A stretch of DNA of 64,000 nt. Origin: an uncultured Bacillota bacterium (GTDB lineage Bacteria > Sysuimicrobiota > Sysuimicrobiia > Sysuimicrobiales > Segetimicrobiaceae). The translations under genes and the position numbers were made by a program. The stretch is taken from positions 160,001 to 224,000 of the forward strand of contig CAWDRG010000017.1 of NCBI GenBank assembly GCA_963804645.1, read 5' to 3'. Position 1 is the stretch's first letter. Every line of letters begins with the position of its first letter. A model generated the notes under the pieces. That model saw nothing but the letters and a program-made list of their open reading frames with translations, did not search any database and had not been told where the DNA came from. Of this stretch, positions 9,091-58,850 are shown piece by piece.

Positions 9091-9175
9091 CGTACTGCCT
9101 CCCATCCACTGCTGCGTCTGCTGCTGCGATCGCTGCTGCGTCCGTGTTCCGTCTACGGCTGCGTGTCTCCGTGCG

Positions 9176-9856
9176 CTAGGCGAACAGGGCCCGACCGACC
9201 CGGATCATCGTGGCGCCTTCCTCGATGGCCGCCTCGAAGTCATTGCTCATCCCCATCGACAGCTCCGGCAGCGCCAGGTCCGCGTGCCGGTCGCGAATCC
9301 CGTCCCGCAGCTCGCGCAGCCTCCGGAAAAACGGCCGCGCCTCCTCCGGGCGCGCCACGAGCGGCGCCATCCCCATGCACCCGCGGAGCCGCAGCCCGGG
9401 GAGCCGGCTGACCTCCAGCGCGACCTGCTCCAACTCGTCCGGCGCGATCCCGTGCTTCTCGGGCTCACCGGAGATGTGCACCTCCAGGAGCACGTCCACC
9501 GGGACTCGGCCGCCGTCCCCCCCGGCCCGGCGGCTGATCTCCTCGGCCAGGCTCAGCGAATCCACCGAGTGGATCACATCGAACAGCCGAACCGCTTCCT
9601 TGACCTTGTTGCGCTGCAGGCTCCCGATCAGATGCCAGGACACGCCAGGCACCAGCGGCACCTTCTCGCGGGCCTCCTGCACCCGGTTCTCCCCCAACAC
9701 CCGGAGCCCGGCCGCCACCCCCTCCCGAATCCGGTCGAGGGACACGGTCTTGGTCACCGCGACCAACAGCACATCGTCCGGGCGCCGCCGCGCCCGCTCC
9801 GCCGCGGCTTGGATCCTGGCCCGGATCCGGGCCACGTTTGCAGCGATATCAGCCAT
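9176..9856 (-). CDS. yggS: PLP homeostasis protein YggS
   Basis: LVAVTK, GENRVQE, WHLIGSLQRNK, LSMGMSNDFEAAIEEGATMIRVG. Confidence 0.95.
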   Translation of the reverse strand: MADIAANVARIRARIQAAAERARRRPDDVLLVAVTKTVSLDRIREGVAAGLRVLGENRVQEAREKVPLVPGVSWHLIGSLQRNKVKEAVRLFDVIHSVDSLSLAEEISRRAGGDGGRVPVDVLLEVHISGEPEKHGIAPDELEQVALEVSRLPGLRLRGCMGMAPLVARPEEARPFFRRLRELRDGIRDRHADLALPELSMGMSNDFEAAIEEGATMIRVGRALFA

Positions 9857-54307: not shown

Positions 54308-55294
54308 CTAGCGCCGCTGCAGCGCCTCGGGGTTCACGACGTTCGGAGGAAGCGCTCCGGTGACGCCCGCGAGACAGTTCTCCGCGGCCATCGTCGCCAT
54401 CTTGATGCGCGTGTGAATGCTCGCGCTGCCGAGGTGCGGGGGAATCACGACGTTGTCGAGCCGCAGCAGTGGATCGTCCATCGGCACCGGCTCGACCTCA
54501 AAGACGTCGAGCCCGGCCGCCCAGATCCGCTTGTCGACGAGCGCCCGGTACAGCGCCCGCTGGTCGACCACCGGGCCGCGGGAGATGTTCACCAGCACGG
54601 CCGTCGGCTTCATGAGCGCCAGCTCCCGCTCGCCGATCAGGTGGCGCGTGTCCGGGGTGAGCGCGGTTGAGATCATCACAAAATCGCTCTGCCGCAGGAG
54701 GTCGTCGAGGGATGCGTAGGTGGCCCCGAGCTCCGCTTCAAGCGTCTCGTTGCGGCGCCGGTTGTGATACAAGAGCGGCATATCGAACCCGCGTGCCCGG
54801 CGAGCGATCGCGGCGCCGATTCGGCCGAGCCCGACGATGCCGAGCGTCGCCCCGTGCACGTCCTGGCCGGTAAACCCCATGAGCTCCCAGGTCTTCCACC
54901 GCCCCGAGCGTGTAAACCTGTCGCCCTCGACGACCCGGCGGGCCGTCGCCATCAGGATCGCCCATCCCATGTCGGCGCTGGTTTCCGTCAGCACGCCCGG
55001 CGTGTTCGTGACCAGGATGCCGCGCCGGGTCGCGGCCGCGACGTCGATGTTGTCGTACCCGACCGCCACCTGGGAGATCACCCGGCACCGCCGGGCCCGC
55101 TCGACCACCTCGGCGTCGATCTTCTCGGTGATCAGGCAGATGAGCCCGTCCACGTCAACGATCTCGCGCAGCAGCGTGTCGCGCGGCACCGGCTCGTCGT
55201 GCCGGTCCCACACACGGTATTCCACCGCGCCCCGAAGCGGCTCCATCGCCTCCGGGGGCAGCGGGCGCGTGATATAGATCCGCGGGGTGGCCAT
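54308..55294 (-). CDS. D-glycerate/2-hydroxyacid dehydrogenase (glyoxylate reductase-like)
   Basis: AVGYDNIDV, TNTPGVLT, GLGRIG, NISRG, AGLDVFE, PHLGSA. Confidence 0.93.
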   Translation of the reverse strand: MATPRIYITRPLPPEAMEPLRGAVEYRVWDRHDEPVPRDTLLREIVDVDGLICLITEKIDAEVVERARRCRVISQVAVGYDNIDVAAATRRGILVTNTPGVLTETSADMGWAILMATARRVVEGDRFTRSGRWKTWELMGFTGQDVHGATLGIVGLGRIGAAIARRARGFDMPLLYHNRRRNETLEAELGATYASLDDLLRQSDFVMISTALTPDTRHLIGERELALMKPTAVLVNISRGPVVDQRALYRALVDKRIWAAGLDVFEVEPVPMDDPLLRLDNVVIPPHLGSASIHTRIKMATMAAENCLAGVTGALPPNVVNPEALQRR

Positions 55295-55321
55295 CCCGTG
55301 TCCTCCTCGATCCGGGACCCG

Positions 55322-56236
55322 CTACAGCTGGGCCCAGGCGTCGGCGAAGACGCGCTTCGTGCTCGCGATCACCGTGGCGGGATCCTCGCCGGGCTGCGGC
55401 TTCACTTCAAAGCTGAGGAACGGCAGTCGGTTCGTCGCGCCGAGGAACCCGATCTCAAACAGCACCCGCAGGTACTCGAGCACCTCCGGCGTGTCGTTCT
55501 CCCCGCCGGCGATGCCGAACCGGGGATGCGCGTCGCCGTACGCGGGGTGCTTGGGATCGCCCATGACGCAGTTCCCGATGTGCGCGTGCACCAGATGGTC
55601 CCGGCCGGTGATCAGCGACTCCCGGACGCTCTCGCCGAGCAGCGGCATGTGGCTCAGGTCGAGCATCAGGCCGAACTCGCGATATTCCTTGCGCACGGCC
55701 TCGGAGACCTTGACGGCCAGCGTGGTCGGCCCCACGAGCGACTTCTTCTCGACCGTCCGGTCGAACGTCTCCATTGTGATCGCGAGATTGCGGTCCCGCG
55801 CGTACCCCGAGAGCTCCATCAGCGAAGCGACGAGCCGCTCGGTGGCCTTCGCCTCGTCCGCCGCGCCGGGATACGGGCCGCTCAGCACGGCGACCCGCTT
55901 GGCCCCGAGGGCCGCAGCCTGGTCGATGCATCCGTGGACGACCTCAACGGCCTTGCGCCGCGTCGGCTCGTCGAGCGCGTTCAGGTTCGATTTCGTCGTG
56001 AGCAGCGCGGACTGCGCCCCGAATCCGACCGCGAGATGGCTCTCCCGGAGCACCGCGGCCGCGGCGACGCGCTGGGCCGCGTCGTGCGCCCACCCGACCT
56101 CGATCGCGGTAAAGAACGGATCGCGGGCGATCTCGCGGATCGTGTCCGCATAGGGCCCCTCACCGGCCATGACCGCCGGGAACGCCATGAAGTGCACGAT
56201 CCCCAGCCGAAGATATCGGGTCCAGGACTCGTCCAT
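55322..56236 (-). CDS. Sugar phosphate isomerase/epimerase (xylose-isomerase-like TIM barrel)
   Basis: GIVHFMAFP, METFD, LDLSH, HAHIGNC, SFEVKP; GGAGG RBS before ATG 56236. Confidence 0.82.
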   Translation of the reverse strand: MDESWTRYLRLGIVHFMAFPAVMAGEGPYADTIREIARDPFFTAIEVGWAHDAAQRVAAAAVLRESHLAVGFGAQSALLTTKSNLNALDEPTRRKAVEVVHGCIDQAAALGAKRVAVLSGPYPGAADEAKATERLVASLMELSGYARDRNLAITMETFDRTVEKKSLVGPTTLAVKVSEAVRKEYREFGLMLDLSHMPLLGESVRESLITGRDHLVHAHIGNCVMGDPKHPAYGDAHPRFGIAGGENDTPEVLEYLRVLFEIGFLGATNRLPFLSFEVKPQPGEDPATVIASTKRVFADAWAQL

Positions 56237-56439
56237 GCGGCACCTCCACTGGCCCAATGGGGACGGCGCGTGAGTTTACCCGAGGGGCACGTGGCACCAT
56301 TCTCGCGCGCCGGCCCGCATCCCTGCGCCCGGCACCGGCGCGGGAACGGGCGCCACACGGCCGCGGCGCCGAGCGCCTGTCACGCGGGACGGTCCACGTG
56401 TGCGTCGGCGATCCCGCGGCCCCGCCGGCCGCCCTTCGG

Positions 56440-56815
56440 TGACGGCGCCGATAGCCATCGGCGCGGTACGAGCGCTCCCGAGACGAGGACTGGTTCGCGG
56501 AGGCGGCGGGACAGGTCGTACGACATCAGCACAGGCGCCCGTCTCCGGGCACGTGCCGACGGTCGCGGCGAGCACCCGGCCGGTCGCAACGGCCACCGTG
56601 ATCTTCACGCCGTAGGAATTCGACGGGGTGTTGCTGTCGAAACAGACGAGCTCGAAGGTCGCGCCTGCCGGCGTCGAGCGCGGAGTAGCCACGTTGACCG
56701 TCCCACGGCGCGGAGGCCGGCCCACACGCGTGGTCGCCAGCACGTGGAACGGTCCGATCAGAAGCTGGGAGGAAGCCGGCGGACGCGGAACGACGCGCGC
56801 GGTGCCGTCACCTCA
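56440..56815 (-). pseudogene. Partial, start-less copies of the pilin head domain (silent cassette or remnant)
   Basis: 56548-56668 encodes AGATFELVCFDSNTPSNSYGVKITVAVATGRVLAATVGTC, 26/40 aa identical to the pilin C-terminus by hand count; weaker similarity on both sides. Confidence 0.75.
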
Positions 56816-57000
56816 CTCGCGGTTCCCCCGCGCTGGGCGAGGCGCGCAGCAGCCACGCGTGGTCCGCATGCCGCCGTCTACTGACACTTTCCCACGACGC
56901 TCGAGATGATCTGGCCGGTCGCGATGACCACGGTGATCTCAATGCCATAGGGACTCGCCGGGGTATTGCTGTCGAAACAGACGAGCTCGAAGGTCGCGCC
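56631..57000. repeat. 35-nt perfect direct repeat (56631-56665 and 56966-57000)
   Basis: TTGCTGTCGAAACAGACGAGCTCGAAGGTCGCGCC at both positions. Confidence 0.95.
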
Positions 57001-57393
57001 CGCCACTGATCCGCACGGGGGAGAGGCCACGTTGACAGGCCCCTGAGGGCTGATTGGACCGCGGTAGCAAGTGCCGGTGATGTGCAGCGGCGCCGCGATC
57101 TTGGCCGCACTGAGATTGGTGTAGGAAATTGTCGCTCCGGTGCCCGGGAGGGTGACCTTGACGTAGTTGGGGGAGCAGTCCCAGCAGGCCCACCACTCCA
57201 GTGTTTGATCCGTCGACGCCGCTTCCGTCTCCGCGGCACGCAGCTGCGCGACGACCTGCTCGCCCAGCTGACGCACCTGCGCGTTGGCTTGGTACCCCTG
57301 TAACGACGGCATCATAATAAGGAGCAGTAACCCGAGAACGGCAAGACCAATAGCAAGTTCGATAAATGTATGGCCGGCCTCGCGTCTGAACAT
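56878..57393 (-). CDS. Type IV pilin / pseudopilin (FimT/GspH-like)
   Basis: Class III signal MFRREAG|HTFIELAIGLAVLGLLLLIMMPSL; six Cys in the head; GGAGGG RBS; AT-richer codons. Confidence 0.85.
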   Translation of the reverse strand: MFRREAGHTFIELAIGLAVLGLLLLIMMPSLQGYQANAQVRQLGEQVVAQLRAAETEAASTDQTLEWWACWDCSPNYVKVTLPGTGATISYTNLSAAKIAAPLHITGTCYRGPISPQGPVNVASPPCGSVAGATFELVCFDSNTPASPYGIEITVVIATGQIISSVVGKCQ

Positions 57394-57798
57394 CACAACC
57401 CCTCCCCCGCGGCCAGTGGCGCCGGCCATACATCCCGCTCGGATGCAGCCGGACCGCTCCAACCCGCCGCTCATACCATGTCTCGTTACATAGTACGCCG
57501 CCGCACCGCCACGCAGTATAGGACTTTTGGGCAATCGTTTGGGTATACGAACGCGTTTTAGCCGGATTTCTGTTCCCGGTGCTCAATTTCCTCCCGTCAC
57601 CCGCCCCGCAATCGCGGCGTCCCGGCCGCGGACCCCGTTCCCGCTCCTTTTCTTTTAATGAAGCGCTCGGACGGCGACGGGAAGTTTCGAGACACGCGTC
57701 ACCGATCCGACACCCTCGCTTGACGGCCGCGTCAGCCTCGGGTGATACGCTCCGGGCAGGAACCCGGCCGAGTCATTCGACTACACGAGGTGAAGGGG

Positions 57799-58290
57799 AT
57801 GTTCGACAGCCGCGTCCTGCTGCAGTTGGCCGAGGGACAAGTCCAGGCTCGACTCGACGAAACAGACCACCAGCGCCTCTTCGCGGAGGCGATGCGAGAC
57901 CACAGCGCCCACGGTGCGGAGCCGACGAGTGGCGCCCACGCGTGGTGGGTGAACCCCGACGCCGGAGGGCGGCGGGCGCGCCCCGAAGGCACGGCGGGCT
58001 CGCAGGCGTCGACCGGCCCGCGGCGCGCTCAGCGGGGGGACCGCGGCACGAGCGGGCGGAGCGCGGCGAGCGTTTGGCGCGCTGCGTCCTCGAGCGTCGG
58101 CTGCTGCAGAATCTCCGCGGAGACAAACCCGGTGTATCCGACCTCCAACAGCGCGGCGATCCACGTCCGGAAGTCGAGATGCCCCCATCCGGGCGCGCGG
58201 CGCGTATTGTCGGCGACGTGCACGTGCCACACCCGGGACGCCGCCCGACGCAGGGCCGCCAGCGGATCCGCCTCTTCGATGTTCATGTGA
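57799..58290 (+). CDS. Possible small hypothetical protein (3' part overlaps iolO antisense)
   Basis: GAGGTGAAGGGG RBS plus ATG; the first ~50 aa look protein-like (MFDSRVLLQLAEGQVQARLDETDHQRLFAEAMR). Confidence 0.35.
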   Translation: MFDSRVLLQLAEGQVQARLDETDHQRLFAEAMRDHSAHGAEPTSGAHAWWVNPDAGGRRARPEGTAGSQASTGPRRAQRGDRGTSGRSAASVWRAASSSVGCCRISAETNPVYPTSNSAAIHVRKSRCPHPGARRVLSATCTCHTRDAARRRAASGSASSMFM

Positions 58291-58850
58291 AACGTGTCGG
58301 GCAGGATGCCGACGTTCTCCTCGCCGAGCCGCCGGAGCAGGTCCATCACCTCGCCGACCGTGGTGAGCCAGTTGCTCTCGTACCGGTTGATCGGCTCGAT
58401 GACGAGACGGACGCCCCGCGCGCGCGCGGCCCGCGCGATCCGCGAGAGTCCTGCGCACAGCCGGTCCTCCGCCTGCGCCCGTGGCTCTCCCGCCGGGACG
58501 GGCCCGTGGATCAACCCGACGATCACAAGGGCCCCAAGGTGCGCCGCCAACTCCACCTGCGCCAGCAGACGCCGTTCGGTCTCCTCGCGACGCGCGGCGT
58601 CCGGCGAGGTGAGCGCGAGTCCCTCCTCAAGATACGCCTGCCCGGTGCCGATCGCGGGAATGGCGACGCCGAGCGCGTGCGCGTCCCTCGCGATCGCGTC
58701 CGCTGAGACGAGGGACGGATCGCGGACCGCGACCTCCACCCCGTCGAAGCCGAGCCCGGCGAGAAACCGCAGCGCCGCCCCGAGGTCCGCGGTCTGGGCG
58801 ACCGCGGCAAACCGGGTGGCGGTCGCGGAGATCGTGTAGGCCAGCTTCAT
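58029..58850 (-). CDS. iolO: 5-keto-L-gluconate epimerase-like TIM-barrel protein
   Basis: MKLAYTIS N-terminus, GFDGVE, AIGTGQAY, IEPINRYE, DTFHMNIEE, HVADNTR; context with iolM. Confidence 0.75.
   Translation of the reverse strand: MKLAYTISATATRFAAVAQTADLGAALRFLAGLGFDGVEVAVRDPSLVSADAIARDAHALGVAIPAIGTGQAYLEEGLALTSPDAARREETERRLLAQVELAAHLGALVIVGLIHGPVPAGEPRAQAEDRLCAGLSRIARAARARGVRLVIEPINRYESNWLTTVGEVMDLLRRLGEENVGILPDTFHMNIEEADPLAALRRAASRVWHVHVADNTRRAPGWGHLDFRTWIAALLEVGYTGFVSAEILQQPTLEDAARQTLAALRPLVPRSPR

Follow-up and report, generated by a model that had tools for sequence, protein, structure and literature searches.

The window analysed here is a stretch of 64,000 nt (G000:C17:160001-224000) from a metagenome-assembled draft genome of 5.3 Mb in 22 contigs, with ~69% G+C. 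The same genome is present in peat metagenome runs. Part of the minus strand is occupied by a sugar-utilisation cluster of ABC permeases, a HAD hydrolase, two TIM-barrel genes, a 2-hydroxyacid dehydrogenase and an FGGY-type kinase, named from our own reading of the translations together with tblastn. Between the two TIM-barrel genes lies a 1.78 kb segment that holds an intact type IV pilin-like gene and, 72-330 nt past its stop, a partial pilin copy. The features discussed below are as follows.

58850..58029, minus strand: first TIM-barrel gene (translation reading and tblastn).
56263..58045, strand not assigned: lineage-specific segment between the two TIM-barrel sugar genes, comprising the pilin gene, the relic and 652 nt of upstream non-coding DNA.
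56878..57393, minus strand: intact type IV pilin-like gene, 171 aa (open reading frame and translation).
56771..56877, minus strand: spacer from the pilin stop to the profile-detectable relic; no terminator-like site; may hold a weak VTAP stretch (56801-56812).
56753..56754, minus strand: position in the 5' part of the relic where the window and L056 differ by a 7-nt indel; it alters the frame upstream of PFHV.
56546..56770, minus strand: probable 3' relic left by another pilin gene from the same subfamily (HMM, tblastn, paralogue alignment).
56578..56669, minus strand: best-kept relic block, 79/92 nt identical to gene positions 56913-57004, including a 35-nt identical run.
56543..56548, minus strand: former last codon and stop of the relic (CCG GAG in the window; CAG TAG in L056).
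56257..55322, minus strand: second TIM-barrel gene (translation reading and tblastn).

An earlier, sequence-only reading of this DNA had described an intact pilin at 57393-56878 with a repeat of its C-terminus downstream on the same strand, and had proposed that the repeat is either a silent donor cassette of the Neisseria pilS kind or scar tissue from repeated replacement of the pilin tip. The arrangement itself is confirmed. A blastn comparison of the gene with the 678 nt downstream aligns 79/92 identical nt (E 1e-27), tblastn pairs pilin residues 84-170 with 56806..56549 at 45% identity (E 8e-17), and a direct-repeat search returns a 138-nt direct repeat of 76% identity at a spacing of 335 nt. 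The hand counts given at the time were reproduced exactly: 28 mismatches in 120 nt over codons 131-170, 26 of 40 amino acids identical, and an identical run of 35 nt, which we place at 56631-56665 in the copy and 56966-57000 in the gene.

The intact gene begins with the leader MFRREAG/HTFIE (MFRREAG/HTFIELAIGLAVLGLLLLIMM), which is short and basic, has G at -1 and E at +5, and runs into a hydrophobic helix. The Pfam N_methyl model scores 19.1 bits on the pilin, below its 21.2-bit cut-off, and no other Pfam family was matched at E up to 1, the GspH-type model included; this weakens formal membership in GspH/FimU but not the resemblance in fold. The AlphaFold (AF2) model of the pilin, with a pLDDT of 71.6, contains one helix (residues 3-61) and eight strands. 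In structural comparisons it is closest to EpsH (Z 10.7, rmsd 2.6 Å, 109 residues aligned) and FimU (Z 10.4, 2.9 Å, 123 aligned), followed by GspH (Z 8.1, 3.9 Å, 118 aligned) and FimT (Z 6.8, 3.8 Å, 104 aligned), while the major pilins reach a Z of 6.2 or less. Foldseek returned FimU for all five of its best chains, with weak E-values of 6e-3 to 4e-2. The genome encodes a single prepilin peptidase (Peptidase_A24, C4:91789-92094, 74.4 bits) and five T2SSE matches for assembly ATPases, among them C4:85345 and C19:214788. A class III-type leader followed by a helix, a predicted pilin fold, and a peptidase and ATPases in the same genome together mark the gene as a type IV pilin or pseudopilin.

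Because the modelled fold lies closest to EpsH, FimU and GspH, with the major pilins behind, the product looks like a GspH/FimU-like minor pilin and not like the abundant surface subunit that antigenic variation targets. The resemblance to the GspH/EpsH/FimU/FimT minor (pseudo)pilins (PDB 4dq9, 4ipu, 2knq, 7qyi) lies in the predicted fold, over 104-123 aligned residues, in the class III-type leader and in the N-terminal helix, whereas sequence identity to the pilin here is just 9-14%. The setting differs as well. The gene is an orphan inside a sugar-utilisation cluster, with no minor-pilin or pseudopilin operon around it; its neighbours are the two TIM-barrel sugar genes and genes for HAD, dehydrogenase, kinase and ABC-permease proteins.

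The segment that carries the gene is peculiar to this lineage. No homology to 56263-58045 was found in four congeners (G001, G002, G003 and G005) or in the rest of its own genome, and the non-coding parts of the segment have no second occurrence in that genome. The pilin is absent from the syntenic slot in all four congeners, where the gap between the TIM-barrel genes measures 369 nt in G002 and 3.3-3.8 kb in G001, G003 and G005; the open reading frames of the G001 gap, the one for which they were listed, are dehydrogenase-, TIM-barrel- and creatininase-like by our own reading of the translations. We therefore conclude that the pilin segment entered a variable slot in the lineage of this species. 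A repeat search around the segment gave no convincing flanking repeats as signs of a mobile element.

A second haplotype of the locus is available from a sister strain, L056, a JGI metagenome contig that is 92.4% identical to the window strain over 4 kb. The arrangement of gene and copy is the same in L056, and the copy has the same boundaries in at least these two strains and in one further sample of independent origin. The reads visibly come from mixed strains, and a 48-nt skip at 56330-56379 in run X1 has the look of an indel between strains, downstream of the copy. Two longer read skips, over 55064-58385 and 55849-58045, were set aside; on one side each is anchored by just 21 letters, and they were attributed to other organisms or to repeats.

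The family HMM, run over all three forward frames downstream of the gene, matches the copy in a single frame in both strains, across profile positions 95-171 (74.0 bits in the window, profile 95-170; 83.7 bits in L056). In the same three-frame search of both strains no leader, helix or variable region was detectable in the copy, as had been noted for the prepilin leader. A C-GP-S-P motif in another frame of the 5' part was considered and rejected, the HMM giving no support in the other frames. The 5' edge of the copy lies somewhere between about 56755 and 56812. By the HMM the copy amounts to some 70-76 terminal codons of a pilin gene, and in the wider estimate to some 70-90. The weaker similarity that the earlier reading had followed to ~56810 survives in part: the pairing of IGPFHV with IAAPLHI is supported by the profile, whereas the pairing of VTAP with VTLP falls in another frame in the window and comes into frame in L056 only by way of the 7-nt indel. 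At the other end, the L056 copy closes with CAG TAG and then ACGG, exactly as the intact gene does, and ~10 nt after the stop are common to the two; the window has CCG GAG at the same place. The copy was thus rightly said to have no cognate stop in the window, and since L056 keeps the native one, its absence is a recent loss in the window strain. Among the conserved residues, neither strain keeps the family-invariant C109 and Y110, and the window strain, unlike L056, has also lost C127. The paralogue alignment shows the last Cys pair in place, and it is for this pair that the statement that both cysteines are kept holds true.

Nucleotide identity between gene and copy follows a steep gradient, from 17-43% over codons 84-117, near random for this base composition, through 57-60% over codons 118-130, to 90-97% in the core, with 53-77% after the core. 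This gradient mirrors the conservation profile of the family. Seven subfamily members share 48 invariant columns, 21 of which fall in residues 135-170, while the variable part, where substitutions and indels are concentrated, corresponds to residues ~60-105; a wider alignment agrees. The best-conserved family stretch after the N-terminal helix is GATFELVCFDSNTP..GI.ITVVIATGQ.I...G.C, which forms strands 135-141 and 150-156 in the core sheet of the AF2 model. The relic block at 56578..56669 encodes GATFELVCFDSNTP..ITV..ATG; these residues are the motif best conserved across the subfamily and form two core β-strands of the model. What had been taken for a duplicated variable head is therefore the opposite, the part of the pilin that the subfamily conserves best. 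At synonymous sites the gene differs from the copy (pS 0.34-0.39) at least as much as it does from the old paralogue C5a (0.32), which points to saturation under strong codon bias. The block is similar because it encodes the most conserved core strands of the family, with a GC-rich codon bias limiting synonymous divergence, and not by recent gene conversion. The 35-nt identical run is itself a feature of the window strain only; in L056 it is 16 nt.

The family to which both sequences belong is small and lineage-restricted. Five close relatives of the pilin were found in a collection of 5.8 billion proteins, and 14 family members at E up to 1e-10 among 1.84 billion representatives; P0008, a 3,972-aa repeat protein, was rejected as a relative, its match being judged one of repeated short motifs. 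The genome holds five intact family paralogues, namely the focal gene, C5:61-546, C5:40987-41475, C5:177368-177898 and C18:73830-74381, and among these five loci a relic lies within 1.5 kb of the focal gene and of no other (family HMM, 1.5 kb on each side). A genome-wide six-frame HMM search also recovered one lone, near-full-length family pseudogene (G000:C13 ~9140-9560, minus strand) with a frameshift and in-frame stops. Neither tblastn with the C-terminal half nor the HMM over 89,964 six-frame fragments found another 5'-truncated family fragment in the genome, and the further cassettes that a donor system would suggest did not appear. Five intact genes, one relic and one pseudogene in a single genome describe a family that evolves by duplication, dispersal and decay, or birth and death.

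The two strains differ in how gene and copy have changed. The intact gene is under purifying, not diversifying, selection (dS 0.19, dN 0.039, omega 0.20; changes by codon position 13/2/21). The copy carries 10 changes between the strains, nine of them non-synonymous and one synonymous (codon positions 7/2/1), plus the 7-nt indel at 56753, which shifts the frame for everything upstream in the copy. The 9:1 ratio fits neutrality (P 0.17) and rejects an omega of 0.2 (P 3e-4). With no start or 5' part, no purifying selection, a frame-breaking indel and essential residues lost, the copy has the character of a relic or pseudogene fragment. Between strains it diverges by 11/225 (4.9%), which falls short of the synonymous difference pooled over four neighbouring genes (11.3%; Poisson P 0.001) and is compatible with that of the slowest neighbour (6.2%; P 0.26), adjacent non-coding DNA standing at 6.5-7.1%. 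Under strict neutrality, faster divergence than this might have been expected. In addition, seven differences can be polarised against the family consensus, and in every one of them it is the window strain, never L056, that has lost the consensus state (P 0.016; two haplotypes, polarised without an outgroup), an asymmetry that could reflect some constraint in the L056 lineage.

We consider it very probable that a second pilin gene, from the same lineage-restricted subfamily, has left the downstream copy behind as a non-functional 3' relic. Such a relic would consist of approximately the last 70-90 codons, the stop and ~10 nt of flank; it would have no function, would be carried passively, probably in the 3' untranslated region of the intact gene, and would decay through point mutation and small indels. 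The origin step is one that we infer, and two routes to it seem about equally plausible: a deletion may have removed the 5' half of a tandem duplicate, or the resident gene may have been replaced by an incoming allele and its old 3' end left in place. The intact gene would encode a functioning minor pilin of GspH/FimU-like type and would belong, with four other paralogues scattered through the genome, to a birth-and-death family. The earlier idea of scar tissue holds to the extent that this is a relic of another pilin gene, but a history of repeated tip replacement is not evident from one relic.

It is very unlikely that the relic is instead in some other use, either as a stability or regulatory element in the 3' untranslated region of the pilin mRNA or as a small leaderless peptide. 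The case for such a use includes RNA-library contigs, which cover 57113-57272 and 56753-56943 at the pilin and are absent from the flanking 3 kb. The second of these starts inside the gene, bridges its stop and extends 125 nt past it, to 56753. The contigs hint weakly at transcription of the pilin that continues into the relic, although the RNA library may contain carried-over DNA. No terminator-like site was found between gene and relic, and one such site lies inside the downstream gene. A promoter scan returned two promoter-like sites, both on the plus strand and hence the wrong one, and is uninformative for this host. The low divergence of the relic between strains would also suit a retained element. 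Against these points, an Rfam search of 56000-58200 at E up to 1 gave no family over threshold, the only match being Acido-1 at 21.4 bits against a gathering score of 50, downstream of the relic. The pattern of changes is unlike that of a coding region, L056 has an in-frame TGA five codons upstream of PFHV, and a peptide made from the relic would be without signal or leader. The RNA contigs also stop short of the conserved block, although in read data consisting of four runs, all as short contigs, the absence of RNA contigs over that block carries no meaning.

The donor reading holds that the copy is a single pilS-like silent cassette, kept so as to convert the 3' part of the pilin now and then by way of the shared conserved block. 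We regard this as highly improbable. The copy does have the outward form of a cassette: it is 5'-truncated, has no start, adjoins the apparently expressed gene on the same strand, keeps an open frame and the last Cys pair, and is retained in two strains and a third sample. Its divergence lies below the pooled local synonymous rate, and the L056 copy retains consensus residues along with the native stop. The homologous part is conserved core, however, and has little variation to offer, and the loss of two invariant cysteines means that longer tracts would break a disulfide. Nine of the ten changes in the copy are non-synonymous, besides the 7-nt indel, and the identical block through which exchange would proceed is not conserved between the strains. 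The truncated copy is also single, the other four paralogue loci having nothing comparable and the rest of the genome just the broken lone pseudogene. The gene, for its part, looks like a minor pilin and is not diversifying.

Comparison of the four sequences, gene and relic in each strain, speaks directly to exchange. Over 136 aligned nt, gene-relic identity is no higher within a strain (103/136 and 107/136) than across strains (108 and 103). At the nine polymorphic sites of the gene, the relic matches each strain four times, as a plain outgroup would. No conversion tract is visible in this two-strain, four-sequence comparison; the differences that a tract would have carried lie interleaved. 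The relic thus shows no concerted evolution with the gene. One gene polymorphism in favour of the donor reading is 56958 C>A, by which codon 146 (GCG/TCG) becomes equal to the relic; the adjacent variant 56953 A>G does not match the relic, and the four-way comparison attributes such matches to shared ancestry.

Alleles that had switched to the downstream copy were likewise sought. The relic differs diagnostically from the gene at V151, K152, A156, V162, L163, T166 and T169, and its tail is absent from all five public alleles (at least 94% identity) and from a 77% homologue. The read data, all in the form of short contigs, have limited power here, rare chimeras being invisible in them. The last 25 residues are invariant among the five public alleles. 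No G4 motif (four G3+ runs, loops of 1-7 nt) occurs on either strand of 55800-58400 or in L056, at a genome-wide density of 0.10 per kb. A G-rich stretch upstream, at ~57590-57640, was rejected as a G4; one of its loops is long, and L056, which has a 46-nt indel there, does not conserve it. The repeat search found no shared 3' element beyond the ~10 nt after the stop, an equivalent of the Neisseria Sma/Cla repeat being of unpredictable sequence in this lineage.

What can still be said for a donor is best put in its narrowest form, in which the relic is a one-cassette, low-frequency conversion partner for the last β-strands of a minor pilin, kept by second-order selection. We give this form very little credence. 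It is left open because the boundaries are kept, divergence is slow, one strain has the frame, three of the four cysteines and the native stop, and all seven losses fall in the other strain; the small probability that we leave for a maintained donor is owed mainly to this 7:0 asymmetry.

An assembly artefact, in which reads of two pilin alleles or paralogues had been collapsed or joined into a chimera, could be suspected in a metagenome-assembled draft of 22 contigs with mixed strains among its reads but is scarcely credible. The independently assembled JGI contig L056 is collinear through gene, spacer and relic. A separate study of a bioreactor metagenome yielded a 347-nt contig that agrees with 56527-56873 at every position, and the stretch 56753-56943 is spanned by an RNA-library contig.

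What stands here is thus a gene fragment of an ordinary kind, decaying next to a minor-pilin paralogue that is restricted to the lineage, with no pilus-varying system. It carries a caution, in that a 5'-truncated pilin copy with a long identical block beside an intact pilin mimics a variation locus of the Neisseria style; comparison with relatives and with a sister strain identifies the block as the conserved core of the family and the copy as decaying. The by-products are modest: a lineage-restricted family of GspH/FimU-like pilins and a variable slot in a sugar-utilisation cluster.

The nearest parallel within the family itself is in the congener G004 (G004:C9, locus L064), where two members form a tandem head-to-tail pair with 84% nt identity and identical runs of 35-41 nt, and a 1-nt deletion frameshifts the second gene, a change that could also be a sequencing error. 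A full-length second pilin in a relative had been named in advance as the sign of a simple decayed paralogue; such a gene does exist, but at a different locus. As an instance of tandem paralogue birth and death, the G004 pair shares with the present locus the pilin family, the head-to-tail order, the long identical blocks and the damaged second copy. The two differ in that both G004 copies are full length, whereas the relic here is without its 5' half and far more diverged.

For Neisseria, the comparison draws on one account (PMC4023411). As described there, class I isolates of Neisseria gonorrhoeae and N. meningitidis have 4-11 silent cassettes each, and it is in these that the hypervariable D-region is found; pilE alleles can be seen to be hybrids and traced to cassettes; and there is an upstream G4 element and, at the 3' end, a 66-bp Sma/Cla repeat. 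The present locus resembles that system in having an expressed pilin beside a partial, non-expressed, 5'-truncated copy, and in the conserved sequence around a Cys-bounded C-terminal region. It differs in the features that would make the copy a source of variation. There is one truncated copy where class I has several; the variable residues ~60-105 are absent or unalignable in it, and what it carries is conserved core; none of the five alleles is a mosaic, within the limited power of the read contigs; there is no G4 beside the expression locus; and the copy has not been kept usable, given its Cys losses, its 7-nt indel and its 9/10 non-synonymous changes. PMC4023411 also describes a second situation, that of meningococci with class II pilins, whose pilS cassettes are not donors and are possibly a remnant of an ancestral locus. 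There, as here, partial pilin copies persist without detectable donor use, although the class II cassettes as described are several, stand at a separate locus and resemble a different pilin class, while the copy here is single, directly downstream and of the same subfamily. By analogy it is this class II remnant case, and not an active variation system, that is the closest counterpart of the relic.

The pilin gene lies in a variable slot. The gap separating two TIM-barrel sugar genes (window 56263-58045) is occupied in the source genome by the pilin segment, and the matching slots of four congener genomes (L052-L055) differ from one another in size, with 369 nt separating the two genes in G002 and gaps of 3.3-3.8 kb in G001, G003 and G005. 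Among these larger gaps, the ORF listing for that of G001 comprises dehydrogenase-, TIM-barrel- and creatininase-like ORFs.

Divergence between strains reaches its maximum for the locus in the 635 nt of non-coding DNA upstream of the pilin gene (57394-58028), at 14.7% as compared with 2-7% in the flanks, and this same region holds a 46-nt indel between strains at about position 57602. On the other side of the gene, Rfam returned a weak match to the Acido-1 sRNA (56404-56468, minus strand), which, at E 0.32 and 21.4 bits, falls short of the gathering score of 50 and is probably due to chance.

The closest paralogue of the pilin gene (C5:61-546 of the source genome) comes within 60 nt of one end of its contig. 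A metagenome contig, L057, joins C5 and C6 at their starts (L057:3484-3809), and the junction measures 164 nt in L057 versus 563 nt in C6; the break in the assembly thus falls at the site of an indel between strains. No pilin fragment is present at this junction (C5:1-60, C6:1-661 and L057:3484-3809).

Outside the window, contig C13 of the source genome carries a solitary pseudogene of the same pilin family (C13:9140-9560, minus strand), for which the family HMM gives an E-value of 4e-6. The part encoding the N-terminal helix is in a different frame from the remainder, two in-frame stops are present, and the C-terminal end is absent.

The search for pilin relatives in the library of representative proteins also matched P0008, a giant repeat protein of 3,972 aa, in which 13 stretches were matched to pilin residues 41-153 (E 3e-37, 26% identity). 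We rejected it as a homologue, as the match appears to reflect a short repeated motif summed across near-identical repeats.

In the congener G004, two pilin genes of the family lie in tandem at L064 (G004:C9:41500-46000; positions within the locus):

1375-2037, family pilin gene, first copy
2302-2888, family pilin gene, second copy

A 1-nt deletion splits the second copy into two frames; this copy is an early pseudogene, unless the deletion is a sequencing error. The two copies share 84% nucleotide identity, with identical runs of 35-41 nt.
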